Assembly: GCA_963733055.1 (NCBI GenBank)
Contig: CAVTBR010000003.1
Coordinates: forward strand, 256,001 to 320,000
DNA length: 64,000 bases
Origin: Candidatus Bathyarchaeota archaeon
Lineage (GTDB): Archaea; Thermoproteota; Bathyarchaeia; 40CM-2-53-6
Reading direction: 5' to 3'
A program made the position numbers and the translations under genes. The notes below the pieces were generated by a model. It worked only from the letters and a program-made list of their open reading frames with translations, was not told the origin of the DNA and searched no databases. This document shows positions 15,788 through 50,487 of this stretch, piece after piece (position 1 is the stretch's first letter; the number at the start of each line of letters is the position of its first letter).

Positions 15788-17150
<1,363 letters not shown>

Positions 17151-24953: not shown

Positions 24954-25706
24954 ATGACCATTATGGCAACGTGGCCGTCTAGCGCTAGTTCACGTGCGGG
25001 CCTTGTTTCTGTAGTGTTGTCCACCTATAATGAGCGCCAGAATCTCTCCAACCTTATCCCGTTGATCGAGAGTATCTTAACAAGCAGCGGGATTGACGGT
25101 GAGATCGTTGTGGTTGACGATAATTCTCCTGATGGGACTTCAGAGGTTGCAAGAGCGTTCGGTAGGCAGTATGGAAACGTTAGGCTTCTGTGGCGGCCGG
25201 GTAAGTTAGGACCTGGTTCCGCGCATGCCGACGGATACCGGTTTGCTGCCGGTGAGATAATCGTCGGTATGGACACGGACTTCTCACATGATCCACATGA
25301 TATTCCCAGGTTCGTTGCGAAGATTAGAGACGGATTCGACGTGGTAGCTGGGGCACGTTACATACGCGGCGGCCAGTACCAGGTTAACTCCCTTCAGACT
25401 TTGAAGAAGAGCGTTGCGAGTAGGTTAGGTAATATCATGATCCACTTGCTCTCGGGTGTGCCTGTGCACGACTTCACGACCGCGCTTCGAGCAGTTAGGA
25501 GAGAGGTCGTGCAAAATGTTGAGACGGAATCGAAAGGGAATTCGTTCTTCATGGAATTCATAATCAAAGCGTACCGCGAGGGTTACAGGACGACGGAGAT
25601 CCCCATCATCTTCAGGGATAGAATTGCTGGAAAATCAAAGCTTAGCCTCGGAAAACAGTCTCTGAAAATGATACTCGACCTGCTCAAACTTACCAGAAAC
25701 CGATGA
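24954..25706 (+). CDS. polyprenol-phosphate mannose synthase (DPM1-like GT2)
   Basis: TYNERQN, VDDNSPDGT, RPGKLG, MDTDFSH, GARY, FRDR..GKSK. Confidence 0.9.
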   Translation: MTIMATWPSSASSRAGLVSVVLSTYNERQNLSNLIPLIESILTSSGIDGEIVVVDDNSPDGTSEVARAFGRQYGNVRLLWRPGKLGPGSAHADGYRFAAGEIIVGMDTDFSHDPHDIPRFVAKIRDGFDVVAGARYIRGGQYQVNSLQTLKKSVASRLGNIMIHLLSGVPVHDFTTALRAVRREVVQNVETESKGNSFFMEFIIKAYREGYRTTEIPIIFRDRIAGKSKLSLGKQSLKMILDLLKLTRNR

Positions 25707-27915: not shown

Positions 27916-29217
27916 TTAACTCGAACTCGATTTCCGTCGCCCCACGGTTTTTGCTTCGGGCTTTGAAGTGGTCGCGCCAAGTGGAGATGCGAGCCGCCCC
28001 GCGATTCGTTTAAGCGCACTTTGGAGCTTGGGATTGAAGCACACGAAGTAACCGGACAAGAAGATCAACTGTCGTATCGCGGCCTCAACGTTCGTTAGGC
28101 CAAAGGGCGTGAGCTGATCCGTCAAGTAGCGTGGGAGTTCTGGATGGCTGCTGCCTATGAAGTAGAACATTATGATGAATGCGTTCAGGACGTCGGCGAT
28201 TCGATATATGAGGAAGTTGAAGTTCGGTGTTAAGATTACGATTGGAATCAGCTGGACCATCATCTGCGGGTCGAAGAGATACACCACTCCATACCACGCG
28301 TACCACGTCATCAATATTTTTTCGAGGGGGGTATGTTTCGTGAGTAGCGCGTAGATCATGAGGAAGAAGAAAATCCCGAGGCTCAGTATCTGGCCCGCCC
28401 TCGCGCCCGAGATTATGTCTCCTAGCCCCGTCGCTGAAATCGCCATGGAGATCCATGTGTTTTGTAGTTGATGGTTCGGGCCGCTATAGCCTACGAAGAG
28501 TTTTACCCAGACATCGAAGTTCGCGACAGCGAACGGAAGATTTACCGCTAGCCAGACGATCGCGGCGGTCAGGGTGAAGTTGATTCGCATCCTCCAGTTC
28601 TGCAGCCCAGCGAGCATTGGGAAGAGCATTATGCCGGGCGTGAACTTCGTGAGTACGCCTAAGGCTAGCGTTACGGCCGCCCATTCGAAGCGTTGATCCA
28701 AGTATAGCCAAATCGAGAGGGTTACGAAATATGCGACGAGGAAATCCCAGTTGTAAAATCCGTACACGACGAAGGTTAAGGTGGTGAGCATGTAGAGGAG
28801 GATTCGGGTTTTGCTTAGGTTTAGTTTCGTGCAGAGCATGTAGAGGGTGTAGATAGTGCCGATCATGAACGGGTATTCGAGTAGGCCTTCGACAACTACG
28901 AAGGTGTTGTAGGAATCGATAACGAATGGGAAGTAGGTCGAGATGGCTTGGCCTAGGTAGATGAGTAGGCCTATCATCTGTGGGTATTCAAGCTCGTACT
29001 GGACATATGGAATCTCTAGGTTGTGATGCCCCGTGTAGACGTCACGAATCCACAGCCAACCGACATCGCTGTAGTGGCTCGGAACGATGAACGGAACCTT
29101 GCTGAGAGCGCTGAGGATCCATATGGTTGTGGCTATGATTATTATGATTCTAAATTCGGTATCCCGTTGGAGTAGGGATCCGAAACCGCGCAAGCCGTAA
29201 CCTGACATGCGATGCAC
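27916..29217 (-). CDS. GT-C fold (GT87-like) membrane glycosyltransferase
   Basis: HYSD, PY...LEYP, NWDF, GVLTKFTP, NLPF, PQ. Confidence 0.78.
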   Translation of the reverse strand: MHRMSGYGLRGFGSLLQRDTEFRIIIIIATTIWILSALSKVPFIVPSHYSDVGWLWIRDVYTGHHNLEIPYVQYELEYPQMIGLLIYLGQAISTYFPFVIDSYNTFVVVEGLLEYPFMIGTIYTLYMLCTKLNLSKTRILLYMLTTLTFVVYGFYNWDFLVAYFVTLSIWLYLDQRFEWAAVTLALGVLTKFTPGIMLFPMLAGLQNWRMRINFTLTAAIVWLAVNLPFAVANFDVWVKLFVGYSGPNHQLQNTWISMAISATGLGDIISGARAGQILSLGIFFFLMIYALLTKHTPLEKILMTWYAWYGVVYLFDPQMMVQLIPIVILTPNFNFLIYRIADVLNAFIIMFYFIGSSHPELPRYLTDQLTPFGLTNVEAAIRQLIFLSGYFVCFNPKLQSALKRIAGRLASPLGATTSKPEAKTVGRRKSSSS

Positions 29218-30387
29218 TCAACCCACGTCTGAGCGGGAACCATCTTTAGAAACTTTCTTTCCAGCCGACGCTTCCGGAGGTTTAGCTGCCGAGCCTGGGA
29301 ATCGTTTCCTCGCGTTTGCGTTTTCCAAGTGTATGACGAGAATTAGGTAGATGAAAATCCAAGCGATAAAGAGGATTTCGCCAATCGATCCGTGGAATGC
29401 TTCAAAGTCAAGGCTGATGTACGTGATGTACAATACTATTAGAGTGATGCGGATTACGTTCACGAAATAAGTTCCCGCCGCCCCAATCACGGCATAGATG
29501 ATTTTGCGGGTTCTGGACGCGTCAAGTTTTACCATGAGGACCAGAATTACGAGGCTGTAGACCACCATGCTAACCACGCCCGAGGAAGGCCAGTAGATGA
29601 CGAGGGGCATGGGGCCCTTCAGCCCGTAGATGGTAAGCCGGTTCCCGCGGAGCCACAGGCTGGGAGGTTTGATGGTCCCATTCAATGGGACGGAGCTTCT
29701 ATTCACTTGGTAGCCGGCCAAGCCCAGTATGAAAACGACCACGTTCCAAATCAGGTAGACCCAGACCTGCAGGAACGCTAGGGAGTCTTCGGGAAAGAAG
29801 GCATCCATCATATCGAGGATTGCGCTGCCGATAGTGTAGATGACGGGTGTCGCCATGAGGAGGATTGAGCTCGTTGAGTAGAGTACGCCGGTCGCGAATA
29901 TGCAGTAAACCGCGTACGTGAGATAATCCATGGCTAATAGAAAACTCAGCGGCGCGCTCTGTGAAACGCCAAGTTGACTCGTCACATAGACTCGTATATA
30001 CGTCGTGAAATTCGTGTCCATTGGCGTATTGTTGATCGGGTTGATTGGAGGGCGAACGAAGAACCCGTTGAAGATTCTAAAGTAGTAGTAGACGAGCAGG
30101 GCGATGAGGATTAGTCCCATGATTAGGTAGCGTCGTTTGTCGCGTGTAGCCTCGAATCTTTTGCGTGAGTCATGAAAGTCCCAGGCTACTAGGAAGAAGA
30201 TGAAGGCCATTCCGGCCCTTCCCACTTGTTGTCCCACGAACCATACAAGTGTGAAGGAGGCTGGGTCGGCTATGATTAGGAATATTATTGGAAATATGAT
30301 GAAGAGCAGCGGGTATGCGTCTCGTGTCTTGAATTCACGGTAGATGCTCGCGAAGAAGTTTCTAACCTGTCCTTTGACTAGCGGCAT
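29218..30387 (-). CDS. thaumarchaeosortase-type (Ser nucleophile) archaeosortase
   Basis: YWPSSGVVSMVVYS, GTYFVNVIRI, FEAFHGSIGEILF: Ser-Arg-His triad with Ser at the usual Cys position. Confidence 0.85.
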   Translation of the reverse strand: MPLVKGQVRNFFASIYREFKTRDAYPLLFIIFPIIFLIIADPASFTLVWFVGQQVGRAGMAFIFFLVAWDFHDSRKRFEATRDKRRYLIMGLILIALLVYYYFRIFNGFFVRPPINPINNTPMDTNFTTYIRVYVTSQLGVSQSAPLSFLLAMDYLTYAVYCIFATGVLYSTSSILLMATPVIYTIGSAILDMMDAFFPEDSLAFLQVWVYLIWNVVVFILGLAGYQVNRSSVPLNGTIKPPSLWLRGNRLTIYGLKGPMPLVIYWPSSGVVSMVVYSLVILVLMVKLDASRTRKIIYAVIGAAGTYFVNVIRITLIVLYITYISLDFEAFHGSIGEILFIAWIFIYLILVIHLENANARKRFPGSAAKPPEASAGKKVSKDGSRSDVG

Positions 30388-30433
30388 TGGTGATGATCGT
30401 CCTGTTTGGGCTAAGTAATCATCATGCGTGGGC

Positions 30434-30979
30434 TTACTTGTCTTTTAGAAGTCTCTCTACCAATCTGGTGTCATGTTGTGTTCGGTCTATTCTGTGGATA
30501 TAGTCGATGAGGAAGGCGGACATGAAGAATATTGCTACGATTACTTTCGACGCGAAGACTACGTTGATGGGGGTTGGGTTTACTGAGATTGGAAAGGGGT
30601 TTGCGATAACGTCTGGGTTCGCTAAACCCTGTACAGCTAACGCCGCTGACCAGAGGACCATTTGGTAGATTATTTCGAAACCGCTCGCCATGGCGACCAG
30701 CCATGCGCCTATGTACATTGTTCTAAGCACGCTCGGCCGTGCCGAGAGCATCCTTCGACGGGTTAAAGGAGTATAGAGTCCGAAGGCAAATGATAGAAAC
30801 ATTGTAAACTGGAAGAAGGTTATTGGCTTCATGTAGAAGCCTGGAAGAATCGGTACCTCGATCAGTACTAGGCTTTGGCCGATAATTTGTCCTGCGGGCG
30901 TAAGGGTTGCGCCCAGAATCATAGCTAGGGCGGCTACTCCGAACCCGATTGATAGGATTGAGAATAGGTTCTGTTTCAC
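30434..30979 (-). CDS. four-TM membrane protein next to the sortase
   Basis: KPITF, GFEII...LWSA, NPD...NPFP, NVVFASK; operonic. Confidence 0.7.
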   Translation of the reverse strand: MKQNLFSILSIGFGVAALAMILGATLTPAGQIIGQSLVLIEVPILPGFYMKPITFFQFTMFLSFAFGLYTPLTRRRMLSARPSVLRTMYIGAWLVAMASGFEIIYQMVLWSAALAVQGLANPDVIANPFPISVNPTPINVVFASKVIVAIFFMSAFLIDYIHRIDRTQHDTRLVERLLKDK

Positions 30980-31049
30980 GAATTCAAGGGTTGAGAGTGC
31001 AGGCTTTACGGCGTTCTTTACGCGAGGTGACTTTCTATCCGTTTCTAAT

Positions 31050-31892
31050 TCACCTTTTTTGTGGTTTTTCCGATTTCTTACGTTTTTGGCTCACTGCCAC
31101 TGTGATGCTTAGGAGTATGATGACTACTGCGTCAATGGATAGTACGGTTAGGGTTTGTGTTTGTGATAGGCTTTGGGTCTGAACCGGAGCCACGTTGACC
31201 GTTAGCCCGGTGAAGTAGCCAACCCAATCGCCTGGATGAAGCCATGTGGTCCCGAGGATCAGGGTGAATGAGATGGATTGTGGCATCTTCCACCCTGCGG
31301 CCTCGAATTGAGTTGAGATGTCAATCTCCCTAGTTGACCAAGTGTTGAGGGGCGTTTGTGTTAGAATGATTCTGTGGTGGGGTAGCTGGAATACTTGGTT
31401 CGGTTGGTCTGCGAATATGTACCAAAGTAGGTTTGTTCCGTCATTTATTTCGACTCCAAACGCGGTTTCTGGATTGTTTGAGGCGTTGTTATACAAGTAT
31501 GGAAAGGTTGGATAGACGTCAATCGTAATTTTGGAACGAAAGATCTCTTCTAATGCTTGCCCTCGCAGATCCTGGCGTACGTGGACCGTGGTCCACACTT
31601 GAGAGTTGTTTGTGTTGGTTCGCTGAACCCTCAATGCGGTGGTTGGGCGATCTGCGACTTGGGTTTGGTAGACTGTGACGTTGTCTGTGGGTCCCTGGAT
31701 TAAGTCGATTGTCCATAGGTACGGGGTAAGAATATTCTTGGTCGGATCCACGGTCCAGAATTTCATGTTCGTGTTGAGGAGCGGGGGAGGCTGGAAAACT
31801 TGACCGTAGAAAACTATGAAAGCAGAGCTTACCGCGAGAATGCAGAAAGCGATGGCGGCGACACCCACTGCGAGCTTAAACTTTTCTGACAA
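31050..31892 (-). CDS. doubly membrane-anchored protein with extracellular beta-sandwich
   Basis: N- and C-terminal TM helices, beta-rich middle, basic tail. Confidence 0.7.
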   Translation of the reverse strand: MSEKFKLAVGVAAIAFCILAVSSAFIVFYGQVFQPPPLLNTNMKFWTVDPTKNILTPYLWTIDLIQGPTDNVTVYQTQVADRPTTALRVQRTNTNNSQVWTTVHVRQDLRGQALEEIFRSKITIDVYPTFPYLYNNASNNPETAFGVEINDGTNLLWYIFADQPNQVFQLPHHRIILTQTPLNTWSTREIDISTQFEAAGWKMPQSISFTLILGTTWLHPGDWVGYFTGLTVNVAPVQTQSLSQTQTLTVLSIDAVVIILLSITVAVSQKRKKSEKPQKR

Positions 31893-33127
31893 GAAAACTC
31901 CGCCTGTATAGCATCACAGCCGACATCACAAGTAACGGCGTCCAGAAGATGAAGTAGTTCTGTAAGCCGCAGGTACGAAAACCAAAGGATTATCGCAGGA
32001 AAGGCCCAGAGAGCAAACGCTAGGCGCTCAAAGAAAACGAGATATACGATAACCAGGGTGGCGGCCACAGCGAGAGTTGCAACTAGATAGAAGGCAGGTG
32101 GCAATGGGACGCCACTGGCGAGGGTGATCAAGGAGAGACCTTGACTAAGCACAACCAGATTACCGAACGCAGGGGTGACTACTCCCGAATACCACGCGCC
32201 AAAATCCTTGAACATGAACCACAGGTTAGGGATTAGAAAAGCCGCAAGCGCCGCCCCGGTGAACACGCCCACCCTCATCAAACGATTTTGCAATTTGAGG
32301 CCCGAATCGGTCTTGAAGAACCAGATTAGAAGGTACGGAGCCAACAACCAAGGCGTCTGTTTCACCGCGCTCGCCAGTCCGAACATGATTCCCGCCACGA
32401 GCGGCCGATCCATGTAAACCACCATGAGAACTAACGGGAGTATCCAGATGAAATCGGCGATGGAGCCTGCTGAGAAATTGATTGCTAAGTCGGATCCTGC
32501 GAAGAGAGGGATTAAGGTCAGCGGCCTAATCTCCTTTGGAGCCCAAACGTAAATGATCACCAGCGTTACGATCTCGAAAATGTAGATTATGATTCTCGCA
32601 TCGCGTACCCCCGCCCAAACCGCCGGGACGAAGGCGATGACCTGAAGCGCGGGATAGTTCAGCGTACTTACGAGATTCCCATTTGGCGTAAGGGTGATGA
32701 ATTCGGGGCTTACGGAAAACATGCTCAGCGCTGACTGCAGGTCTTGCGGATACGGGTTAATCCCTTTGGATAGCAAAATCGCCGAATAGTGGACAAACGC
32801 AAGAGCGTCCGTCTGATATGCACCCGGATGCTCGATCTGCGTTACTACGTACCAACTCGCAAGGGTCGCAAAGATAAGTGACCCAAATGCGGCGTCCCTG
32901 AATCTCCTGATGCCTTTTATGTTTACGGTGGCGAGCAGGAAGAGAACGAAGGCGAGCGCGTAGCTAACGATTAGTAGCAGCACAACCTCCGGATGCGTCT
33001 CGACCCTACCCCGAATCCAATTTTGCAGCCCTTCAGCGAAAATGAAGCCGGCAGCAAACAGCATGCTAACTCTTACGCAGAACTGTTCCAGCGCATCGGC
33101 ACTGAGTCTGGACGCGGGATTAATCAT
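31876..33127 (-). CDS. GT-C fold (GT87-like) membrane glycosyltransferase (+1 frameshift at 31971)
   Basis: YQTD, GINPY, LNYP, KQTPW, PNL; corrected end WFSYRGLQNYFIFWTPLL...RKV*. Confidence 0.78.
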
Positions 33128-35321
33128 GGGTCTTCCTCTTGCGGATAAGGATGGCAACCGTGAGTGCGAGGCAGACAGTGAAGCTGGTAAGTGAAGCTAT
33201 GCTCCATTGGTTACCGCTTGTTCTTTGGTATAAGGTCACTTGCGTAGTGTCCGGGGGAATTGTTAGCAGAATGTATCCCGTGACGCTGTCTCTCCCCACA
33301 ACGAGCGGCGATCCATTCGCGGTACCAACCCATGTGGGGAAATACGCCTCCTTCACGATTATCGTTGACGTGCCCGGAGTCGGTTGGAAGTTCATTATGA
33401 TTTCATCTGGGTTGGGGCTTGTTACACTAGTTAGGTTAACGTTGGATGAGTTCGTCTCTATGAATGATGGGACGGTTGTCGATTTGTATACTACGAGGTT
33501 GATGTTTCCGTAGGGAACGATGAGTTGTTCAGTAAAGTTGGTGCTTTGCATGAGTTCACCCGCTAGAGTTCCATTGTCCCCGATCATAATCCACGTTACG
33601 TCAAGAAGTTCTGAATATGAAACAAGTTTTTGCCATTCGCTTAACCGTGCTGTTTGGTTGGGTGCGGTCTCTAGGTCGTCCAGGCGATAGTCATTGAAGG
33701 CCGCTAGTTGCTTAACGAGTATGGTTTGGGGATACCAGCCGTCGATAATCGTTTTGTTGACGTAGGATGGGAGTACGTAGATCCAGAAGGGTACGTTGAT
33801 TCCGAGGATTCTTCCTTGTGAAGCGTCATTGCGGAAGTAGTTGATTACCTCTGGAGGAATTTCAGCGTTGGAGGTTGAATAGGGGAGGACTCCGTTGACC
33901 GTATTGTTTAGGTCGTAATTGATTTTCATGGCTACGCTTACGGTGATCGAAATTATGGCAAGAGAGACGAACATGATGACTAAGACTGGACGTCGGGCAA
34001 AGATCTTCGAAACCGAACGGAGTATACCTCGCGCGGTAAGCGCACTCATGGGCAACGCCAAGTACAGCCAGATTCTGTAAACGTCCATTGTCTTCGTCCA
34101 TATCGTATCTATGAGAGGCAATTGAAGTACGGGTAGAGCGTAGTAACCTAATCCCAGCCATAGAAATAGTATGAACCAGAAAACCGCGAAGATTACCCCG
34201 TTCTTTCTTGAAATTACCCGCCGGGCGTACTGAATGATTATGAACTGTCCTAGAAAGATAACGAATGAGGCGGCCACAATAATCTCGCCCAAAACTTCGA
34301 TGGTTCCGAAAGTGAGTATTTCACCGGCTTGAAAGACTGCCATTCCCGCTAGAAGCGAGGTGAAAAATACGGCTGGGCTCACTGGGATCCGTTTGGCGAA
34401 GTTGCGGCCGATAATTGATTGTACGGCGACTGCTGCCAGGACGAATTGAACGATACCCAAGAGATATGATGATACGTCGTATCCGAAATACGTGAACCTC
34501 AGGAACGGGAACGTGACGTTCCTGTTGAAGAATTGGTTCGATGAGAAGAGGCCGAAGGAGGTTATGAATGGGACGAGCCAGAACGAGGTTATGCCCAAAG
34601 TGCCACCGGCGACGAGGCCGAGTTTTAGCAGGGGCCGAGATGGCCCGTCCTTTGCGGAGGCAAGCAAAACCATGAGTAAGGCGACGAGTCCTGCGATCAG
34701 GGCGGATAGGTGATGCGTTAGTAGTAGGGCGGACATGGCAAGCGTGGAGAATAGGATATTGGTCTTGGAGTCTTTTTGCGCGAGCGCGCGGTGGAATGTT
34801 ATGAAGAAGATACAGGAGAGGGGTATGGCTAGGACTGTTGGGAACCTGTCGAAGAAAATGTAATTTTCTATGACCTCGGGGAACAGGCTGAAGAGCAACG
34901 CGCCGAGCGCTGATTCGCCTTTGTTAAAGCCTAGCTCCTTTGCGAGGAAGTAAACTGCCAGAGGTGTCAGTGAGTAGAATAGTGCGTCGACGAGTTTGTA
35001 GGCGAGTAACGGGTCCAGACCTAGCACTGCAAGCCCCGCGGTTATGTAGTAACTTAGCGGCGGGTAGAGCAAGAGGGCCGGTGAGCCGGCGTACCAGTCT
35101 GTGCTCCAAAACGGGGTTATGCCTTGCTTCCACCAGTACTGTAGGAAGAGAATTTTGTAGAGGTGGCTTGTCGTATCCACACTCAGCGGAATCCCGGGCA
35201 GAAACCGTGGAATGGTTATCGCCGCAGAGATCACAGTGGCCCCGGCGAGGAGAAGCCTGGAATTAGTGTTAAGCGCGGTGTTGATTGATCGCGAAGGTTG
35301 GCCGGGTGGTTTCGTTGGCAA
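33120..35321 (-). CDS. large GT-C membrane protein (PTPS-related/YfhO-like)
   Basis: D...HLYK, W...WYAGSP..LYPPLSY, FW..P, DGWYPQ, KEAYFPTW. Confidence 0.78.
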   Translation of the reverse strand: MPTKPPGQPSRSINTALNTNSRLLLAGATVISAAITIPRFLPGIPLSVDTTSHLYKILFLQYWWKQGITPFWSTDWYAGSPALLLYPPLSYYITAGLAVLGLDPLLAYKLVDALFYSLTPLAVYFLAKELGFNKGESALGALLFSLFPEVIENYIFFDRFPTVLAIPLSCIFFITFHRALAQKDSKTNILFSTLAMSALLLTHHLSALIAGLVALLMVLLASAKDGPSRPLLKLGLVAGGTLGITSFWLVPFITSFGLFSSNQFFNRNVTFPFLRFTYFGYDVSSYLLGIVQFVLAAVAVQSIIGRNFAKRIPVSPAVFFTSLLAGMAVFQAGEILTFGTIEVLGEIIVAASFVIFLGQFIIIQYARRVISRKNGVIFAVFWFILFLWLGLGYYALPVLQLPLIDTIWTKTMDVYRIWLYLALPMSALTARGILRSVSKIFARRPVLVIMFVSLAIISITVSVAMKINYDLNNTVNGVLPYSTSNAEIPPEVINYFRNDASQGRILGINVPFWIYVLPSYVNKTIIDGWYPQTILVKQLAAFNDYRLDDLETAPNQTARLSEWQKLVSYSELLDVTWIMIGDNGTLAGELMQSTNFTEQLIVPYGNINLVVYKSTTVPSFIETNSSNVNLTSVTSPNPDEIIMNFQPTPGTSTIIVKEAYFPTWVGTANGSPLVVGRDSVTGYILLTIPPDTTQVTLYQRTSGNQWSIASLTSFTVCLALTVAILIRKRKTHD

Positions 35322-35322
35322 G

Positions 35323-36075
35323 TTAGAGCCCGGCGGAATCGTCTCTGAGCTCGGTTTTGGTTTGGCGTCGGAGTGGTATGGGGTTGAGGATTATGATTGC
35401 CGCTACTCCGCCTATGATGAGGGCGAGCACGAGGATGGTGTCAATTCTTTCGGTTGTGAAGAAGAGCCTGGGTGGCATTGACCGTATGTTGTATTGAGTA
35501 AATGTGTGACCTGTTTCGGAGTCTTGCCAGATGAGGACGCCGGTTTCTTTGTTTATGAATTGGAATGTTGTCGTTCCGGCACCCGCTAGCATTAGGTATA
35601 GATATACGTTGGGCAGGCCCATCTCGATGCTAAGGACTACGTCCACATACATCTTCGTGTGCCGGAAGTCGTTGTTGCCTTTGAAAAAGCCTACAATGTC
35701 TCCGGTCTTTGTGACGGTTGAATTGTAAAGCACGTCAACGAATGTGAGGCCGAAGCCTGCGTCGATTCTGTCGTCGCTATCATTGCCCGATAACCAACCG
35801 TGGCCGAGGAATTCGAGCACTCGTAATCCGTTGTTGTTCGTTCCGTATATGTCGTTGAACATTATCCTTGCCCAGTCGGCCGTTGAATCCATTATGATCC
35901 TGATCTCGGGGCTCTTCTGCCAGCCGGTGACCTGTACGTCAGATCTAGGGTTACTGTTCAACATCCGAACGACAAGGACTGTTGAACCTAAAACGACCAA
36001 GATGAGCAGCGAGACGAGTGAGATACCTTTCAGAATAGCCGTTTCATGTTTCCTGACGACTGCAACTCGAGGCAA
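35323..36075 (-). CDS. doubly membrane-anchored hypothetical protein
   Basis: N- and C-terminal TM helices, extracellular beta domain; tightly packed in the operon. Confidence 0.7.
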   Translation of the reverse strand: MPRVAVVRKHETAILKGISLVSLLILVVLGSTVLVVRMLNSNPRSDVQVTGWQKSPEIRIIMDSTADWARIMFNDIYGTNNNGLRVLEFLGHGWLSGNDSDDRIDAGFGLTFVDVLYNSTVTKTGDIVGFFKGNNDFRHTKMYVDVVLSIEMGLPNVYLYLMLAGAGTTTFQFINKETGVLIWQDSETGHTFTQYNIRSMPPRLFFTTERIDTILVLALIIGGVAAIIILNPIPLRRQTKTELRDDSAGL

Positions 36076-36139
36076 CGGACTCCTGCTTCCTCATCCCCAA
36101 GGGGACACCATTGACTTAACCTAGCTTCCGGGTAGGTCG

Positions 36140-36943
36140 TTAGCGAGTATTGGCCTGGAAGACTTTATCTTTCGGGTAGACTTCGATGCCAGTTTGACCA
36201 ATTTGGTATGGTCGTAGTTGGTCGTCGTGGCTGATCCCACGCATCTTCTCCACCTGAATCCCCCTGACGACGTTCCCATCGTGGACCATGGTGTGTAGTA
36301 GGACGACGCCTTGTGACAAATATTCTTCGATTTGAAATTGGCGTTCAAGCTCTGCGGTGCGTAGCTCACTGGTTACGATGCAGGAACAACCCGTTGATTC
36401 AAGGGCGTCGAAGAATAAGAGTAGGGCACGTCGCCTTTTGATTTCTTCAGGATAGCGAAGCATTAGTGACGTTATGGGGTCAACTACGATCCTCTGTGTT
36501 CCTTCCTCGGCAGCTATCCTGCGAATCGTTCGAACTAGCGATGGGAGGGTAAGTTCTGGCATGGTCAAAGTCACGGGATTGTCGCTGCCAATGTTGGGTT
36601 CCACGAACCTTTGACCCGGCCGTTTCAGGGGTGTCGCGTCTACAAATGTGAGCTTTCCCGCCTGTTCAAGAGAATCCAGGTCCCATCCGAATGATGTAAG
36701 ATCTACTTTCACGTGTTCGGGTTTCTCGTCGAGTGAGACATAGAGTCCGGTCTCGCCGGCTTTCGCGCCGCCAACGAGAAACTGTACCGCGAACGTGGTC
36801 TTTCCGGAGCCTGGGCTTCCAACGACAAGGATCGTTCTGCTCTTGGGCAGGCCGCCCCTCAATACTTCGTCTAAGCCCTTGATGCCAGTTGAAACCCGGT
36901 CCAACTCATTATCACTTAACTTGAGGAGAGTAGGGAATCTCAT
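36140..36943 (-). CDS. single-domain KaiC/RAD55-like ATPase
   Basis: STGIKGLD, GSPGSGKT, SLDE, RIVVDP, IEEY, EKMRG. Confidence 0.92.
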   Translation of the reverse strand: MRFPTLLKLSDNELDRVSTGIKGLDEVLRGGLPKSRTILVVGSPGSGKTTFAVQFLVGGAKAGETGLYVSLDEKPEHVKVDLTSFGWDLDSLEQAGKLTFVDATPLKRPGQRFVEPNIGSDNPVTLTMPELTLPSLVRTIRRIAAEEGTQRIVVDPITSLMLRYPEEIKRRRALLLFFDALESTGCSCIVTSELRTAELERQFQIEEYLSQGVVLLHTMVHDGNVVRGIQVEKMRGISHDDQLRPYQIGQTGIEVYPKDKVFQANTR

Positions 36944-37058
36944 TATTTACCTCAGTGGTCGGATACCCGATTATCTACCACTGTAATCGTAGTAGGACGT
37001 CGCTGAATTGCAACCAGTTATTCTAGAAAATGGTTTAGAGAGTCTTCTTTTGGTTTTT

Positions 37059-37096
37059 GAAAAAGAGAAACAGGGTACGGGCGCCTTGCGGCGCTC
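37059..37096 (-). terminator. hairpin plus U-tract after the giant surface-protein gene
   Basis: gcgcc-GCAA-ggcgc followed by tttctcttttt on the minus strand. Confidence 0.5.
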
Positions 37097-37102
37097 GGAC
37101 GC

Positions 37103-40100
37103 TTAAACGCGTCTTCGTTTGAGTAGGTATAGTGATGCTGCTAACGCCGAGAATGCGACAACCGCGACTGCACTGAATTCTGGGACAGGGATGTTGCTCT
37201 GCTCCAGGTACACGTTCTGACCCGATCCGGTTTGGCCTGGTGAGACCGCGACGGACCAAGTTTGAGGCGCGTATCCTGGTTGGCTTATGCTAAACTTGTA
37301 GGTGCCTGGGGGTAGGAAGGCTTGGTAAACGCCGTCATAGGTGTAGAAGTTCCACGTAGCTCCACTAGCGCCAGTCACGCTGACTGTGCCCCAGCTGAGA
37401 GTGCGGAACTCGTTACTCCACGTGAAAGCGAGTACGTTGCCCGAAACGAACCCGTTCAGGTCAACTTCAAAGATAGCACTAGCTTCTCCACTGTTGTGTG
37501 TTCCTGCGATTTGCCAAACTCCTTCTTGCGAGTACGGGCCTAAGTGGTTCGCGGCCATCGAGTGGCCGACGAAGTTGCTGTTCAATGCCATGTCTTCCGT
37601 CAGGCTGATGCCTGAGGTTGCGGTCGTGCCTGGGATGATGTGATACGATTCACCCATCAGCAGACCGTTGACTGGCGGATAGTACTGCGCGAATAAGCCT
37701 GGTGTAGTTGCTACTTGTAGACCGCCGCTTGCAGCTTCTTGGAAGCCTGCGTTGGCGGAGTACCATGGGACGAAGTCGGCTTCAGCTGTCCATCCACCCG
37801 TGTAGTCTGGTGCACCCACTATGCCCGAGTTCGGGAATGGGTACATAGCGTACGCGGCTGGGTAGCAGTCGAGCTCGAAATCGCATGCGCCACCCTGTAG
37901 CGGGTCACCAAAGTAGACACCCGTAATGTCGCTTCCGAACGGTACCTGCTGCGGCAAACCTGCCAACAACACGTTGAGCAGAGTTGTACCGGAGGGTACG
38001 TAGTTGTAACCGTTCAATCCGGAGCGTGGTTGGTCGTATGGTGATCCACCCTGGGTGCTGAATGGGTAGTACGGTGCAGTTGGGTTAGCGAATCCATTGC
38101 CGTTCGGCGAAAGGACGCCGTTGGCCGCAGTAGCGTGGCCGCTATAGACACCGCCTGGGTTACCAAACGGTGCTGTATAGCCTGAGCCTGGATAGGTGCC
38201 CTCACTGGACATCCATTCAGCCACTAACTGGCCTTGGTCATTGAATAAGCGAACCCGCGCAGACATGTTCTGACTTGTCGGAGTGATGATGCTCTCTTTC
38301 TTGAATAAGATTTGGAGAGAAACGTTCACACCGATGATCAAGTTGATCTTCATGTCCGCAACCTGCCCGCACGCCGCATAGGCTGTGAAGTCTTTGTCCT
38401 GGACGTAGCCGTACGTATAGGCTGCGAGGTTGTATTGACCAGGGGCAAAGGCGAGCGGCCATACAGTGTACAGGCTGTTAAACATGCTATTCTTCAGGAG
38501 CTTGTTAGCTCTGAGGAAGCCGAACGAGCCTGACGTGTAGCCGCCCACGAAAGCATAGCGGGCTGATTGGCCGTAGTAGACATCATGCGAGTTACTGAAT
38601 CCCAATAGTACGTTGCGTCCACCACCGTCCATCTCAGCACAGTTCAACGAATAGCCCTGGGATGGGTTGAAGCAGTCGGTTCCGCCCGGTCCCTGGAAGA
38701 GACCGCCGAGGAGACCGCCTTCAGTATTACCCGGAACTTCGTTGAATGGTACGCTGAGTGGTAGGTAGCTTGGTTCTGGGCCGAAGTAGTCGGTTAGGGC
38801 TCCGGCTGTGCCGTTAGTTACTTTGTAGAATCCGACATCAATCTCAGATCCTAAGCAGCCGCCTAGAGCTAGGAAACCGTTTTGGCATCCGGACCAGACC
38901 CAGTTCCTACTGACGCGTGGTCGTTCCCAGTCGATGCTGTACACTGATACGTTGAAGCCTGGGCCTAGGAATAGGTGGTCACTGATAGCGGTTGGATTAC
39001 CGCTTAAGGTGACTGATACCTGTTGCAATGGAGCGACCGCACATGGAGCAGAATCATAGTAGCCGTTTGCGGCTACGTTCACTGTGTACGTACCCGAGGG
39101 GATGCCGTAATTGTCACCACCCCAAGTATCGTTGATGCCCCAGTACTGAATCGCCGCACGACCGGAAGCAATGGAGTTTGCGTTCAAACCAGCTTTGTCC
39201 AACGCGCCGCCAACATATGGCGTGCCCGCGCAGGACACGCTTGGAGCTCCGTTCTCACCGGACCCGTTGGGTCCGTTGAACGTGTTTCCGTTGGCGCCGA
39301 ATAGGAATCCGTCGTACGCGTATTGATCGTACGAGTTGCATCCGTTAGTGTAGTAGTAGTAGCTTATTCCGCCAGCACCAGTGTAGCCGAGGGCTGTTAC
39401 GTTGTATGAGTAGATGTTTCCATCAGCTCCTTGCAAGTATCCCCAGAGGAATCCTGCGACGGAGTGGATTGGGCTTGTTACGATGGTGTTCGGTGTGTCG
39501 TGGAAGTAGACGGTCTTGTTCACCCAGCTGCTCAAGCGAATGTCGATTGGTAATGTTACGTCTCCTGCCCACTCGTTGGGTGTTACGTCAAAGTAGTACT
39601 CCTGGAAGGTAGAACCGTCCAGAGCAGTTTGAACATAACGGAAGGTCCAGACACGTACATAGTACCTGCCTGCTGTGAGGCCGTTGATCCAAGTAGCGTA
39701 AACCTGCGGAACTTCTCCCGACAAGTCTCTTGGAGCACCGTACTCACCCTTCAAACCCATCTCAAAGTGGAACGGAGTAGCAGTACCACCAGCAACGAAC
39801 CATTGCTGCGGTGGACCAACACCTTGCGGGTCGGAAGCCAGCAGGGTGTTTCCTGCTTGGCTGCTAATGGCTACATCACGCGAGTAACCATTAATCGCAC
39901 CCGTGAAGGGGTTGGGGTTGTCACCGTAAGCAGCGCCGTTGACTGTGCTGTACTCATGCCATGGAAACGCAATTGCGCTTCCATCGTGTGGGTCACCGCA
40001 CAAATCAGCCGCGCGTCGGCCGTAGTAGTCCTCTTGGCCTCCCGCTACACAAGGTAGTGGAGTCCAGACGACTGGCGCACCGGCGCTCGGGTCAACTTGG

Positions 40101-41473
40101 TTGCTGAGTGTTGCGTTACTGTATAGCTCAATCTTGATGTATTGACCACCGTCTGGCCCGTTTGGCCATGGTTGGTCACCGAACTGGTGTTTCGTGAACA
40201 CGTTACCGTGAACCACGGGTCCTGGTTGCAGGAAACAGTCAAAGTGAAGTGACTGACCTTTGAGGACAGTTACTCCGCTATTGCACAGTACCTGCGGGTA
40301 GCCTGCGGCTTCAGCGTAGATGTCGTAAACGCCCGGTGCGAGGCCTTCTAGTTCATAGTGGCCGTTCGCCGTAGCGTTCACGAAAGCTTGGCTGTCGATC
40401 GTGCCTAGGTCCGGTCGGTTCTGACCCGTGTAGGGGTCGATGCGCATAGTCATGTGCGCCCAAACCTTGCCAGCCTCAGCGATCGGTAGTTGGTATAGGG
40501 TTGAGTTGTAGCCCGCATACCGGAGAGTTCCGGTTATGATGGCTGGATCAGTCTCACCCTTCACCAACACGACTGGCCAGTTCTGAGGTGGAACCCAAAC
40601 GAATGGGTTCTCATTGCTCGCTCCGTGGCCGGCCAGTGTTGGGCCAACGCCGTAGACGTTGCTGCTGCTGTATAGAGCCATTTTGAAGAAGTATCGTCCC
40701 GCGACGGACGGTGCGGTTACGCCGTTGATTCTGGCGTAGTACCATTCGCCTGCGGATGTGAAGTTGATGTATTGGTGGTTGTAGTATATGCTACCTCCGC
40801 TGTTAGCGTCGATGGTAGCATCTACTGTTATCGCAACCATAGTCCAGCCTGGCGCATATCTGTCGTTCGGGCCAAGCTTCGCAACAAGGTACCGGTCGTA
40901 ACTGTTGGTTAACGTCGAGACGATTTGTGAAGAATCGAGTGACGTTGCACCTGGTACGTTGAATTCGGGTGGGATAAGGATGAACCATGTATCCCAACCG
41001 AAAGTCTTCTTCAAAGGTGTCTGAATTTCACAGACTGTTGCGCTACCAGATATACATGCATGGTTCGCATTCGGCGACCAAGTGTCTGGTGTGCCCGTTG
41101 CGTTCATTGCGAAGATCAGGTCACCGGTCGAGTTCGTTAGTACTGCTCCGAATGGGGCATACGTGTCCGATTGAAGCTGATACCAACTGTTGCTCGGTGC
41201 ACCCGGAGGATTACCCTGCGGGTAAGGTGACTGATAACCTGGTGAGCAGCTTGCGCTCACTGTGTTCGGCATACCCTGATACGCACATTGACCGCTACCA
41301 GGCCAAACATAACCAATAGGCCCAGCAACATGCGGGTCAAAATTATGAATGTCGTATGGGGACGTTCCGGACAGGTTGCCTAACGTGAAGTGCGCTTGTG
41401 TTGGAACAATAATTGCGAATGTACTAATTAGGAATATAGCGATTGTTAGCGTTGCAGCTAATTTTTTCTGCAA
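37103..41473 (-). CDS. giant PEF-CTERM cell-surface (probable S-layer) protein
   Basis: Signal peptide, carboxypeptidase-regulatory-like domains (GLAPGVYDIYAEAAGY, LPPGTYKFSISQPGY), many N-x-S/T sequons, C-terminal VPEF-TM-KRRRV; SD AAGGAG. Confidence 0.85.
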   Translation of the reverse strand: MQKKLAATLTIAIFLISTFAIIVPTQAHFTLGNLSGTSPYDIHNFDPHVAGPIGYVWPGSGQCAYQGMPNTVSASCSPGYQSPYPQGNPPGAPSNSWYQLQSDTYAPFGAVLTNSTGDLIFAMNATGTPDTWSPNANHACISGSATVCEIQTPLKKTFGWDTWFILIPPEFNVPGATSLDSSQIVSTLTNSYDRYLVAKLGPNDRYAPGWTMVAITVDATIDANSGGSIYYNHQYINFTSAGEWYYARINGVTAPSVAGRYFFKMALYSSSNVYGVGPTLAGHGASNENPFVWVPPQNWPVVLVKGETDPAIITGTLRYAGYNSTLYQLPIAEAGKVWAHMTMRIDPYTGQNRPDLGTIDSQAFVNATANGHYELEGLAPGVYDIYAEAAGYPQVLCNSGVTVLKGQSLHFDCFLQPGPVVHGNVFTKHQFGDQPWPNGPDGGQYIKIELYSNATLSNQVDPSAGAPVVWTPLPCVAGGQEDYYGRRAADLCGDPHDGSAIAFPWHEYSTVNGAAYGDNPNPFTGAINGYSRDVAISSQAGNTLLASDPQGVGPPQQWFVAGGTATPFHFEMGLKGEYGAPRDLSGEVPQVYATWINGLTAGRYYVRVWTFRYVQTALDGSTFQEYYFDVTPNEWAGDVTLPIDIRLSSWVNKTVYFHDTPNTIVTSPIHSVAGFLWGYLQGADGNIYSYNVTALGYTGAGGISYYYYTNGCNSYDQYAYDGFLFGANGNTFNGPNGSGENGAPSVSCAGTPYVGGALDKAGLNANSIASGRAAIQYWGINDTWGGDNYGIPSGTYTVNVAANGYYDSAPCAVAPLQQVSVTLSGNPTAISDHLFLGPGFNVSVYSIDWERPRVSRNWVWSGCQNGFLALGGCLGSEIDVGFYKVTNGTAGALTDYFGPEPSYLPLSVPFNEVPGNTEGGLLGGLFQGPGGTDCFNPSQGYSLNCAEMDGGGRNVLLGFSNSHDVYYGQSARYAFVGGYTSGSFGFLRANKLLKNSMFNSLYTVWPLAFAPGQYNLAAYTYGYVQDKDFTAYAACGQVADMKINLIIGVNVSLQILFKKESIITPTSQNMSARVRLFNDQGQLVAEWMSSEGTYPGSGYTAPFGNPGGVYSGHATAANGVLSPNGNGFANPTAPYYPFSTQGGSPYDQPRSGLNGYNYVPSGTTLLNVLLAGLPQQVPFGSDITGVYFGDPLQGGACDFELDCYPAAYAMYPFPNSGIVGAPDYTGGWTAEADFVPWYSANAGFQEAASGGLQVATTPGLFAQYYPPVNGLLMGESYHIIPGTTATSGISLTEDMALNSNFVGHSMAANHLGPYSQEGVWQIAGTHNSGEASAIFEVDLNGFVSGNVLAFTWSNEFRTLSWGTVSVTGASGATWNFYTYDGVYQAFLPPGTYKFSISQPGYAPQTWSVAVSPGQTGSGQNVYLEQSNIPVPEFSAVAVVAFSALAASLYLLKRRRV

Positions 41474-43912: not shown

Positions 43913-44114
43913 AAGATCTTGGTCCCGAAGAATTAACTACTGCTCAGTTCGTGGCGTAATCAGATCTAATTCGGATTATCTATACGATCCTTTCGTCTGC
44001 CTGCTAGAATATGCTCTCCGACGGCTACTCGGAGAAGTACCTGGCTCCATGGAAAAACCGGTAACGTATGCCAAGCTTTAAGTTCAACTAAAAAATCGTA
44101 TTACTGGAATACAG

Positions 44115-50007: not shown

Positions 50008-50487
50008 ATGAAGCCGACCCGGTACCTTCTCTTAGCGGGACTGACGATCGGAATGTTACTTCTAGGTACGGAACTGGCTAGTGTTAGCGCACAGCCGCAC
50101 GTCCAACAGGTATGGGGTGCGGGTGGCGGAGAAATCGTCGGCGCGGTTTATGGCATGACGTGGGATGATCAGCTTACCCCCATAGCGTGGGCTACAGTGA
50201 ACACGAACAACGGACGAACTACATTCGTAGCCTACAGTAGCGGAGGCGGCGATTACCAAATGTACCTCCCCCAAGGAACGTATAACGTCACAGTCGTCCA
50301 ACCAGGTTACGTACCGCAAAGTAGCGCCGTAGCCGTTGCACCTGGATCAGCGAGCACCATAAACTGGTATCTGGAAGAATCACACGTCCCAGTACCCGAG
50401 TTCCCATCAGGAATGGCATCAGCTATAGCCATCCTCGCGTTGGCCGCAGTCCTTGTCGCTGCGAGACGGACCAAACGCACGAAGTAA
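50008..50487 (+). CDS. small PEF-CTERM surface protein
   Basis: Signal peptide, one carboxypeptidase-regulatory-like domain, VPVPEF-TM-RRTKR; TTTATT at 49970. Confidence 0.87.
   Translation: MKPTRYLLLAGLTIGMLLLGTELASVSAQPHVQQVWGAGGGEIVGAVYGMTWDDQLTPIAWATVNTNNGRTTFVAYSSGGGDYQMYLPQGTYNVTVVQPGYVPQSSAVAVAPGSASTINWYLEESHVPVPEFPSGMASAIAILALAAVLVAARRTKRTK

Follow-up and report, generated by a model that had tools for sequence, protein, structure and literature searches.

Enzymes of the exosortase/archaeosortase superfamily have a conserved Cys nucleophile accompanied by a conserved Arg and His. The lipid that has been proposed as acceptor for Haloferax ArtA requires phosphatidylserine (PS) decarboxylase. 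Among GT-C glycosyltransferases, those acting on proteins have a large ectodomain, and mycobacterial PimE (GT87) draws on polyprenyl-phosphate-mannose as donor and on a glycolipid as acceptor. The thaumarchaeosortase (TIGR04297) and PEFG-CTERM (TIGR04296) models are presumably intended as a pair. Haloferax volcanii ArtA has Cys-173 as nucleophile and archaetidylethanolamine as proposed acceptor, and the fact that artA, pssA and pssD are syntenic pointed the way to the acceptor-lipid genes (PMC7157517). Rhombosortase leaves GlyGly-CTERM proteins with a new C-terminus bearing a glycerophosphoethanolamine-containing moiety (PMC6219818).

We analysed a window of 64,000 nucleotides from a Bathyarchaeia archaeon, described as a soil archaeon, utilizing Pfam and NCBIfam profile searches with curated or gathering cut-offs for family matches. 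Nine open reading frames (ORFs), all on the minus strand, extend from 41473 to 27916 with the coordinates of the preliminary description and intergenic gaps of -64 to 159 bp, confirming the tight co-directional run reported there. In order they encode a 1,456-aa PEF-CTERM protein, KaiC, anch1, PTPS_related, GT87a, anch2, tm4, a Ser-archaeosortase and GT87b. As the arrangement recurs in relatives it is far beyond chance. The features of the run and its surroundings are:

37103..41473, minus strand: giant surface (S-layer-like) protein, 1,456 aa, with signal helix, CarboxypepD_reg domain and PEF-CTERM tail
36140..36943, minus strand: KaiC-like ATPase, 267 aa, single domain, cytoplasmic; Pfam KaiC 199.3 bits
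35323..36075, minus strand: anch1, bitopic; no family match in Pfam or NCBIfam
33120..35321, minus strand: PTPS_related GT-C-type membrane glycosyltransferase, 733 aa; PF10131 77.4 bits
31829..33157, minus strand: GT87a, core GT-C of the module; GT87 just under cut-off; frameshifted copy
31050..31892, minus strand: anch2, N-terminal membrane helix and beta-jelly-roll ectodomain; modelled partner of GT87a
30434..30979, minus strand: tm4, 181 aa, four membrane helices by eye; no family match
29218..30387, minus strand: large sortase (archaeosortase family) of 389 aa; Ser268 stands at the nucleophile position, with Arg313 and His332 kept
27916..29217, minus strand: GT87b, second GT87-like membrane protein; GT87 23.3 bits (cut-off 25)
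41737..43959, plus strand: type-I membrane protein with KaiC-like domain, 740 aa, divergent from the giant gene
23137..23898, minus strand: GT2 candidate dolichyl/polyprenyl-phosphate sugar synthase (Pfam Glycos_transf_2)
24192..24875, minus strand: SDR epimerase/dehydratase, frameshifted (Pfam/NCBIfam)
24954..25706, plus strand: GT2 candidate dolichyl/polyprenyl-phosphate sugar synthase (Pfam Glycos_transf_2)
50008..50487, plus strand: CarboxypepD_reg protein with VPVPEFP tail, 159 aa
50453..51232, plus strand: small Cys-type archaeosortase, reading MCTG...NIGRI...AHYP

We tentatively read the operon as a conserved Bathyarchaeial system of PEF-CTERM surface-protein maturation in which two tracks meet at the same proteins, a reading drawn from homology and structural models to which we would give slightly less than an even chance. 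In the first track, suggested by homology and conserved adjacency, the giant protein would, once exported, stay tethered through the PEF-CTERM helix at its C-terminus; the large archaeosortase (Ser268, Arg313, His332) would cut at the PEF motif via an acyl-enzyme, and the new C-terminus would be handed to a membrane lipid or to water. In the second, suggested by fold, a modelled complex and neighbouring genes, cytoplasmic GT2 enzymes would charge dolichyl phosphate with sugar and, at the outer face, a two-subunit GT-C (GT87a and its jelly-roll partner) together with PTPS_related and GT87b would extend a lipid-linked glycan, tm4 being a candidate flippase or enzyme. For the fate of the glycan we favour, by choice and not as a result, a lipoglycan or glycan decoration for the same surface layer; module and sortase would cluster because components or targets of the module are themselves sortase substrates, and not because a glycolipid is the sortase acceptor. 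We guess that the probable role of the KaiC-type ATPases is to regulate assembly or to supply it with energy. With its giant-protein gene beside an unusual sortase and sugar enzymes, the locus would offer a lead on how uncultured soil archaea assemble and anchor their outer coat.

The giant protein has hydrophobic segments at residues 5-23 (the N-terminal signal helix) and 1428-1446, a CarboxypepD_reg domain near its C-terminus (Pfam) and the C-terminal end IPVPEFSAVAVVAFSALAASLYLLKRRRV, which comprises a motif, a hydrophobic helix and a basic cluster (IPVPEF, 21 hydrophobic residues and KRRR). The tail SNIPVPEF...RRRR is kept in relatives, 39 of 41 of which contain the family, and five paralogues are present in the same genome. 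It matched neither the PEF-CTERM (TIGR03024) nor the PEFG-CTERM (TIGR04296) model, both very short models whose weak matches are removed by HMMER filters; the tail of one paralogue scored 14.5 bits for PEFG-CTERM (cut-off 25) and that of a 722-aa protein 20.6 bits for PEF-CTERM (cut-off 23). PEF-type tails lie beside the large-sortase clade in several lineages, those of the genus belonging to the giant genes, and at three loci (L034, L052, L072) a Cys-type orthologue of the large sortase has a small PEF-CTERM protein at a distance of 35-190 bp. The giant protein shows no enrichment of N-glycosylation sequons (15 against a shuffle mean of 12.7, with 263 of 1,000 shuffles reaching 15) and the oligosaccharyltransferase gene (AglB) is on another contig; a simple N-glycan role of the module is therefore without positive support.

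The large sortase carries the exo/archaeosortase signature TIGR04178 (cut-off 23), scoring 39.7 bits for the single protein and 43.8 bits when the genome was searched, and is the only copy of its clade in the genome. The preliminary description had called it a thaumarchaeosortase (WPSSG) with Ser in place of Cys. The motif (WPSSGV) and the exchange stand, Ser268 aligning with the nucleophilic Cys of its orthologues and of the two canonical archaeosortases in the same genome, but membership of TIGR04297 does not, the protein scoring 99.1 bits in the NCBIfam scan and 95.3 in the phylum-sample search against a cut-off of 250. Although the enzyme departs from the conserved Cys of the superfamily, Arg313 and His332 also align and are, with 29 other columns, invariant among 11 divergent sequences. 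Orthologues in other Bathyarchaeia have Cys at the nucleophile position whereas all 30 true thaumarchaeosortases examined have Ser (WPSAGV), a contrast that is new here. Five of five complete genomes from the thaumarchaeosortase family contain no sortase-family member other than the Ser enzyme, and the Ser form therefore functions by itself. The stem branches of the Ser-type sortases are very long (2.25 and 2.56 changes per column), which could signal altered function.

The large sortase and the true thaumarchaeosortases share one protein clade, a Bathyarchaeial profile finding the latter at E 1e-66 to 1e-76, as well as the Ser and the conserved Arg and His, and at one locus (L105) a cupredoxin-like protein with a PEFG tail lies directly upstream of a true member. 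In contrast to these, the large sortase is Bathyarchaeial, about 75 residues longer and has orthologues carrying Cys; all 43 genomes of the phylum sample over the TIGR04297 cut-off belong to one other family (f19), and module genes were found within 1.5 kb of true members at none of 30 loci. An archaeosortase together with an S-layer glycoprotein bearing a tripartite C-terminal signal recalls ArtA/PGF-CTERM, whose lipid-biosynthesis genes pssA and pssD likewise lie in synteny with the sortase in certain genomes and apart from it in others (PMC7157517). The operon differs in its Ser nucleophile and in having GT-C neighbours, not phospholipid enzymes. PS decarboxylase was found in none of five genomes in which controls were detected, so that the lipid put forward as ArtA acceptor is probably not made here. 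Rhombosortase is also a Ser-nucleophile membrane enzyme removing a tripartite C-terminal signal (PMC6219818), but it has a rhomboid fold, is bacterial and comes without a glycosyltransferase module.

Linkage of the GT-Cs to the sortase, as put forward in the preliminary description, held in part of the clade. The two are adjacent in 22 of 41 distinct related loci, comprising 14/14 of Ser-type, 8/15 of WPC-type and 0/12 of WQC-type, which is new here. Three distinct gene arrangements show the linkage, with the tm4 gene beside the sortase. The sortase is present in 23 of 24 GT87a-positive genomes, 7 of 31 relatives with the sortase have neither GT87a nor tm4, and in the phylum sample the sortase family occurs in 69 of 301 genomes and tm4 in only five; the sortase family is widespread without the module. 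From one cassette type of the genus to the other, the sortase falls to 31-35 % identity along with the module while the giant tail is nearly identical. Unlinked modules start with an Omp28-like PEF-CTERM protein at 4/4 loci, and this protein lies between sortase and module at L069 and L072. That a module unlinked from the sortase carries its own PEF-CTERM protein is new here, and provides a plainer reason for the linkage than a glycolipid acceptor. PEF-CTERM proteins linked to the module across lineages have the tail in common but not the ectodomain.

Within the module, the profile assignment was upheld for PTPS_related (PF10131, 77.4 bits against a gathering cut-off of 26.4) and, as with thaumarchaeosortase (99.1 against 250), fell short for GT87 (PF09594), GT87a and GT87b scoring 24.1 and 23.3 bits against 25. 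Among 11 orthologues of GT87a, GT87 was matched in six (best 8.6e-7), Alg6_Alg8 in one and PIG-M in none (Pfam, E up to 1). In the window, a 1-nt frameshift near 31,970 interrupts GT87a, whose conserved C-terminus can be followed in the +1 frame as far as about 31,876, so this copy may be defective or the assembly in error. The predicted model of a 70 %-identical orthologue has a GT-C fold, matching 21 GT-C entries at Z 20.0 to 11.7 with unrelated rows at Z 7 or less. These include GPI mannosyltransferase I (9wno_A, Z 20.0, 307 residues aligned, rmsd 4.0), ALG3 (Z 19.5), PIG-U (Z 15.7-16.2), PimE (Z 14.5), and Pmt and AglB (Z 11.7-13.1). The best matches all have lipid-linked acceptors and lie 6-8 Z units over the protein-acting enzymes. 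In fold the core GT-C is nearest to enzymes or subunits handling lipid-linked glycans, Dol-P-Man enzymes in particular. Besides the multi-helix core, GT87a has an acidic residue in the first outer loop, as expected of GT-Cs, an invariant Asp in YxTD just past the first core helix.

Although anch2 had been described as a second anchored protein, its C-terminal helix is not kept in orthologues. Its model (pLDDT 86.3) has a jelly-roll ectodomain whose fold matches are glycan-binding or glycan-processing beta-sandwiches (Z 10.3-12.7); PIG-X/Pbn1 chains were found neither in the Foldseek top 50 nor in a second look with VIA over the Foldseek top 1000 chains. The predicted complex of GT87a and anch2 scored 0.69 in three runs against 0.27 for the best control (partner pLDDT 83, at least 83 % of contacts agreeing); at calibration 116 of 157 solved complexes reached the mark, as against 2 of 215 mismatched pairs. 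anch2 is thus predicted to bind GT87a, and this modelled pairing, together with the structural closeness of GT87a to GPI mannosyltransferase I and ALG3, is new here. The PTPS_related protein has a C-terminal ectodomain and terminal helix and is missing from the second cassette type (L037-L040), and GT87b was seen in the genus alone. tm4, with 44 invariant columns, has four membrane helices by eye, only two being marked by a simple hydropathy window, and its place next to the sortase recurs across several gene arrangements.

In GPI mannosyltransferase I (PIG-M/Gpi14 with PIG-X/Pbn1) a single-pass partner stabilises the catalytic subunit; for GT87a the binding of a single-pass partner with an ectodomain is a prediction of the model. 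In the GPI system, as is proposed for the operon, a C-terminal helix is taken off the surface protein. However, GT87a lacks sequence membership and ALG3 ties as its structural match, the operon transpeptidase is unrelated to PIG-K, the helix of anch2 is N-terminal and the protein not homologous to PIG-X/Pbn1 as far as tested, and steps involving inositol, GlcN or ethanolamine phosphate were not found. PimE represents the closest Pfam family to GT87a by sequence, although both GT87-like proteins fall under its cut-off and the structural match is lower than those of GPI mannosyltransferase I and ALG3.

A small Cys-type archaeosortase (50453-51232), absent from the preliminary description, lies 21.5 kb from the large sortase next to the 159-aa PEF-CTERM protein. 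The genome has three sortase-family members, the large Ser-type enzyme and two Cys archaeosortases, each of the latter adjoining a PEF-type protein. Small and large sortases are 12-23 kb apart on one contig in 7 of 22 sampled genus genomes (this one included). The best partial matches of the small enzyme are archaeosortase H and heimdallarchaeosortase, both far below cut-offs, and a tail scoring at the Loki-CTERM cut-off is 2.5 kb away, which together point to PGF-like tails as its targets. One genome (G008, 76 % complete) has a canonical giant tail and only the small sortase was found in it.

These data bear on three other explanations. The GT-C module might make an outer-face glycolipid on whose amine or hydroxyl the sortase acyl-enzyme is resolved, leaving PEF-CTERM proteins covalently glycolipid-anchored in a GPI-like or PorU-like manner. 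Operonic linkage in three arrangements with tm4 beside the sortase, the nesting of the module in sortase-positive genomes, the joint divergence of sortase and module over a near-identical giant tail and the absence of PS decarboxylase, with the ArtA-type acceptor probably not made, would all fit, as would the likeness of GT87a to GPI mannosyltransferase I and to PIG-U, the glycolipid-binding subunit of GPI transamidase, and the modelled two-subunit architecture. Precedents for such a link are the artA-pssA-pssD synteny (PMC7157517) and a Ser-type sorting enzyme with lipid attachment (PMC6219818). We nevertheless consider this explanation rather unlikely, since members of the sortase clade function in many genomes where the module is missing (seven of the 31 relatives), tm4 is far rarer than the sortase family, sortase and module are unlinked in the WQC clade and a PEF-CTERM component belonging to the module accounts for the co-occurrence more simply. 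Likeness of fold is not proof of function. A GPI-type pathway calls for an amine-bearing bridge (ethanolamine phosphate) and its donor lipid; the cluster has no visible deacetylase, phosphoethanolamine transferase or other amine-supplying enzyme, the sole PIG-L-family match being on the same contig about 390 kb away.

It is improbable, in our view, that the small archaeosortase processes the giant protein and that the Ser-type enzyme has drifted to a role with the GT-Cs, such as a scaffold or the handling of lipid-linked intermediates. The invariant Arg, His and 29 other columns of the large-enzyme clade argue against this, as does the Ser enzyme being the sole family member in five thaumarchaeosortase-family genomes; Cys-type orthologues of the large enzyme directly adjoin PEF-CTERM proteins, and the targets of the small enzyme appear PGF-like. 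In its favour are the three family members, with two Cys archaeosortases beside PEF-type proteins that could process the giant protein, the recurrent synteny of the small enzyme, the long Ser-type stems and the G008 genome. We attach a similarly low probability to the GT-Cs acting on protein directly, adding or extending O- or N-glycans of the surface protein in a Pmt- or AglS-like manner with no lipid-linked end product. This would suit the position of the GT-C genes beside the main surface-protein gene, the large ectodomain of PTPS_related and the presence of Pmt and AglB in the fold list of GT87a, but the best fold matches use lipid-linked acceptors at 6-8 Z units higher, sequons are not enriched, AglB is encoded elsewhere and the module-linked PEF-CTERM proteins of different lineages have a common tail and not a common ectodomain.

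Among the remaining genes, the two GT2 proteins, previously described as polyprenol-phosphate sugar synthases, are confirmed as GT2 members (Glycos_transf_2, 103.2 and 38.8 bits), although their best NCBIfam matches, polyprenyl/dolichyl-phosphate sugar transferases, are all below cut-offs; the epimerase reported with them at 23.1-25.7 kb was recovered, though frameshifted. anch1 has conserved N- and C-terminal helices flanking an ectodomain of roughly 170 aa (alignment) and is unrelated to the Omp28-like PEF-CTERM protein that holds the same position in other lineages (hhalign probability 1.6 %). The KaiC ATPase (PF06745, 199.3 bits, cut-off 26.6) has the Walker A sequence GSPGSGKT, and its orthologues, 72-95 % identical, adjoin the cluster or the sortase in most loci. 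The 740-aa protein consists of a signal peptide, an ectodomain that includes CarboxypepD_reg, a single membrane helix and, on the cytoplasmic side, a KaiC-like ATPase domain; counterparts, about 626 aa long, adjoin the module at L125-L128 and also at L030, L031, L037, L039 and L043.

Nine ORFs on the minus strand, running from 41473 to 27916 with a spacing of -64 to 159 bp, encode a giant (1,456-aa) S-layer-like protein, a KaiC ATPase, the bitopic protein anch1, a PTPS_related enzyme, the core GT-C enzyme GT87a, the jelly-roll membrane protein anch2, a 4-TM protein, a 389-aa sortase with Ser268 at the nucleophile position and a second GT87-like enzyme (GT87b), within a genome of 2.88 Mb in three contigs. 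We consider it probable that this cluster is one functional unit which matures PEF-CTERM surface proteins, combining a sorting enzyme with an outer-face machine that assembles glycan on lipid using dolichyl-phosphate sugars. ORF positions and matches to Pfam and NCBIfam agree, so the genes listed in the preliminary description are correct, including two GT2 enzymes and an epimerase at 23.1-25.7 kb. The KaiC and PTPS_related proteins were matched at 199.3 and 77.4 bits, and the GT87 matches (24.1 and 23.3 bits) both lie slightly below the Pfam cut-off of 25. The sortase reached 39.7 bits with the exo/archaeosortase signature (cut-off 23) but only 99.1 bits with the thaumarchaeosortase model (cut-off 250). 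Anch1, anch2 and the 4-TM protein had no Pfam or NCBIfam match even when E values up to 10 were allowed, and none of the sortase, GT87a and giant-protein sequences retrieved a usable match among solved structures. The giant protein carries a signal helix and a C-terminal CarboxypepD_reg domain, and its tail passes from IPVPEF through a hydrophobic helix to KRRR. Frameshifts or splits affect three conserved genes of the window: GT87a at ~31,970, an SDR epimerase at ~24,190 and glutamate dehydrogenase at 16,708-16,740. This pattern suggests assembly indels. The 4-TM protein has a distantly related paralogue (44.5 bits) encoded outside the window at C3:351338-351829 on the third contig, and several relatives have similar second copies.

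The genome encodes three members of the sortase superfamily, the large Ser enzyme and two Cys enzymes. These and other features outside the nine-gene cluster are listed below.

Features outside the nine-gene cluster
Window 41737-43959: type-I membrane protein with a CarboxypepD_reg ectodomain and a cytoplasmic KaiC-like ATPase domain
Window 44822-47920: M6-family metalloprotease of 1,032 aa with a CARDB domain and the tail IPAIPGFPVEG...KRKRK
Window 50453-51232: small Cys archaeosortase, directly after a 159-aa CarboxypepD_reg protein ending VPVPEFP (the pair spans 50008-51232)
Contig 1: Cys archaeosortase of 267 aa, adjoining a protein ending TIPEFP

The KaiC-fusion protein stays next to the module (defined below) and to the separate KaiC gene even at loci whose sortase lies elsewhere, as at L125-L128, and the two KaiC proteins could be a surface-to-cytoplasm signalling pair.

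To describe conservation we define the module as anch1, PTPS_related, GT87a, anch2 and the 4-TM protein, counted when parts fall within the fetched flank of the sortase. The linkage of GT-C enzymes to the sortase, central to the preliminary description, held in part among 41 distinct loci of relatives grouped by sortase motif: module parts were present at all 14 Ser-type loci and at 8 of the 15 WPC-type loci but at none of the 12 WQC-type loci. Three arrangements occur, one with the gene order of the window, one running giant-KaiC-sortase-anch1-GT87a-anch2-4TM without PTPS_related, and one in which the sortase is divergent or convergent to the module and adjoined by the 4-TM gene. GT87a and the 4-TM gene are present elsewhere in all five WQC-type genomes, about 1 kb apart on the same contig in four of them, the best matches in G339 being on different contigs. 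At four fetched WQC loci the unlinked module comprises an Omp28-like PEF-CTERM protein, PTPS_related, GT87a, anch2 (its ORF uncalled at one of the four), the 4-TM protein, a 626-aa KaiC fusion and KaiC. The Omp28-like protein also lies between sortase and PTPS_related at loci L069 and L072 and is absent from the window's genome; homology with anch1, which occupies the same position, was ruled out (hhalign probability 1.6%).

Among 41 genomes of relatives the sortase was found in 31 and a GT87a orthologue (E < 1e-100) in 24. Of these 24, 23 also carry the sortase, and the one that does not is a genome in 500 contigs at 89% completeness. From gene content the sortase appears to be independent of the module, because seven sortase-positive genomes (84-100% complete) have neither a GT87a nor a 4-TM orthologue, and because, of the 301 genomes sampled from the phylum, 69 match the sortase family and only 5 the 4-TM protein. 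Genomes with the module but no sortase are very rare, and the module's first gene is always PEF-tailed or membrane-tethered. The hypergeometric probability of this nesting (P = 0.0005) treats related genomes as independent, and we therefore take the counts and not the P value as evidence.

An alignment of orthologues from 17 loci places Ser at the W-P-x-x-G-V position in the window's genus (WPSSGV or WPSVGV), and other Bathyarchaeial families have Cys there (WPCAGV, WPCVGI, WQCAGI). Eleven divergent sortases all retain Arg313, His332 and another 29 columns, and two canonical small archaeosortases from the same genome have their Cys at the position aligned with Ser268. The TIGR04297 cut-off was exceeded in 43 genomes of the phylum sample of 301, all 43 from family f19, which we call the thaumarchaeosortase family solely because its members exceed this cut-off. 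All 30 proteins examined above the cut-off have WPSAGV, and in each of the five complete f19 genomes the thaumarchaeosortase is the sole superfamily member. The recurrence of Ser inside an otherwise-Cys clade, with the remaining active site retained, is the pattern expected of a putative nucleophile exchange and not of decay. Very long stems lead to the two Ser clades of the genus in the tree (2.25 and 2.56 changes per column), which may reflect a shift of function; the clades are joined to each other weakly (79/82), with a long-branch attraction warning from the program. Such a natural Cys-to-Ser exchange inside one orthologous sortase clade lends itself directly to testing the mechanism.

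Scanning the genome for C-terminal tails gave 52 pattern matches, which we sorted by eye into 22 of the type EYP[LFYI]GL, 8 IPGFP, 6 of the giant type, 11 other PEF/PEL/PEY and 5 chance matches. The giant type comprises four giants, one 722-aa protein and one paralogue with PEL. Several observations are evidence that PEF-type tails probably belong to the large-sortase clade: in each of the genus's two cassette types the giant gene adjoins the cluster, its tail is nearly unchanged across relatives, and small PEF-CTERM proteins lie at 35-190 bp from Cys-type orthologues of the large sortase at loci L034, L052 and L072. To these is added locus L105 (genome G122, 622-1428), where a cupredoxin-like protein with the tail VVPEFG (amicyanin model 38.5 bits; PEFG-CTERM 18.6 bits versus a cut-off of 25) is encoded immediately upstream of a true thaumarchaeosortase, the only one of 30 such loci, each with 1.5 kb flanks, to have a PEFG-tailed neighbour. 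Adjacency in several lineages supports pairing the PEF/PEFG-CTERM signal with the thaumarchaeosortase-related clade as its candidate enzyme. For the small Cys enzyme of the window we lean towards PGF-like tails, given that the tail of the M6 protease scores 19.9 bits with Loki-CTERM, exactly the cut-off, and that the best partial matches of the enzyme are archaeosortase H and heimdallarchaeosortase; IPGFP tails occur on seven further proteins of the genome. Small and large sortases lie 12-23 kb apart on one contig in 7 of the 22 sampled genomes of the genus, including the present one, so the whole stretch looks like one surface-protein island.

GT87a was modelled from a 70%-identical orthologue (pLDDT 77.6, pTM 0.82). 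The model resembles Candida glabrata GPI mannosyltransferase I with Dol-P-Man (Z 20.0, 307 aligned residues, rmsd 4.0), tied with yeast ALG3 (Z 19.5), followed by PIG-U of GPI transamidase (15.7-16.2), PimE (14.5), ArnT (14.2), AglB (13.1) and Pmt (12.6), with unrelated rows at or below 7. Orthologues share an invariant Asp in YxTD past the first core helix. The anch2 model (pLDDT 86.3) is an N-terminal helix followed by a jelly-roll, which has glycan-binding or glycan-processing proteins of similar score (Z 10.3-12.7) as its fold neighbours; the C-terminal helix of anch2 is not conserved. In the protein atlas all scores for anch2 and anch1 fell below 0.9, including CBM_4_9 at 0.84, and serve as leads only. 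Modelling supports binding of anch2 by GT87a: the complex scored 0.69 in three runs versus 0.27 for the best control, with a partner pLDDT of 83 and at least 83% of contacts common to the runs. Of the complexes used for calibration, 116 of 157 solved ones attained the mark, as did 2 of 215 mismatched pairs; because our own alignments were used, these counts apply only roughly. The GT-C module would carry out glycan-on-lipid synthesis at the outer face of the membrane, dependent on dolichyl-phosphate sugars. The AglB gene is on a different contig from the cluster, and enrichment of sequons in the giant protein was rejected. We found no GtrA-family flippase in the genome; that the 4-TM protein is a flippase is a guess.

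As to how enzyme and module are linked, we tentatively prefer that module components or targets are sortase substrates and that what the module makes decorates the surface layer or lies beneath it. The preliminary description had proposed that the surface protein is attached by its C-terminus to a glycolipid, in analogy with GPI transamidation. That PEF-CTERM proteins of Bathyarchaeia, the main S-layer-like protein included, become covalently attached in this way we regard as unlikely. It is similarly improbable that the GPI-mannosyltransferase-I-like two-subunit GT-C builds that glycolipid outside the membrane for a Cys-or-Ser sortase to make the link, and doubtful that the two divergent sortase-plus-module cassettes of one genus correspond to different anchor glycans. 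Such a system would be an archaeal counterpart to GPI anchoring and to bacterial PorU/A-LPS anchoring, the latter a precedent for covalent glycolipid attachment, and, if true, a third independent invention of protein glycolipid anchoring. In its favour are the fold neighbours of GT87a, the way sortase and module diverge together from one cassette type to the other, and the missing PS decarboxylase (found in none of five genomes, with Haloferax and Methanosarcina controls positive). Against it stand how widely the sortase occurs where the module does not, and the absence of an amine-supplying step. Other good precedents are acceptor-lipid genes syntenic with artA (PMC7157517) and a Ser sorting enzyme that attaches lipid (PMC6219818).

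The locus bears on the question of surface-layer attachment in Bathyarchaeia and ammonia-oxidising Nitrososphaeria. It defines a set of five to eight genes, among them the two-subunit GT-C resembling GPI mannosyltransferase I, and what this set makes can be looked for at the C-terminus of a single abundant protein. S-layer anchoring in Nitrosopumilus is treated only as speculation in one study (PMC11153153). Literature searched outside subscription journals on thaumarchaeosortase, PEF-CTERM, archaeosortases and S-layers yielded no description of the cluster and no mention of thaumarchaeosortase.

The giant family is present in 39 of 41 relatives, mostly in multiple copies. Paralogues in the same genome lie at C1:1325815-1330269, C1:931989-936302, C1:1056619-1060317 and C2:181642-186024, with 75%, 56%, 30% and 73% identity (tblastn). 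In G022 (95% complete, no sortase found) the tail is absent from two of three giant paralogues examined and the third has IPIPDL; in G020 (88% complete, no sortase found) the three examined have PEF, AEF and IPIAEP. Twenty-two mostly small proteins of the window's genome, including those at C2:486219 and C3:153417, share the very uniform tail PIPEYP[LFY]GL..ILAI...GYG.[IV]RRRTRN, which matched none of the NCBIfam sorting-domain models (best, Heimdall-CTERM at 9.7 bits) and may be an undescribed class of sorting signal. Two membrane-anchored proteins at window positions 47782-49671 and 51395-52561, both without a Pfam match, consist in part of repeated beta-rich 'TQY.L' segments, which the M6 protease also has in its C-terminal half.
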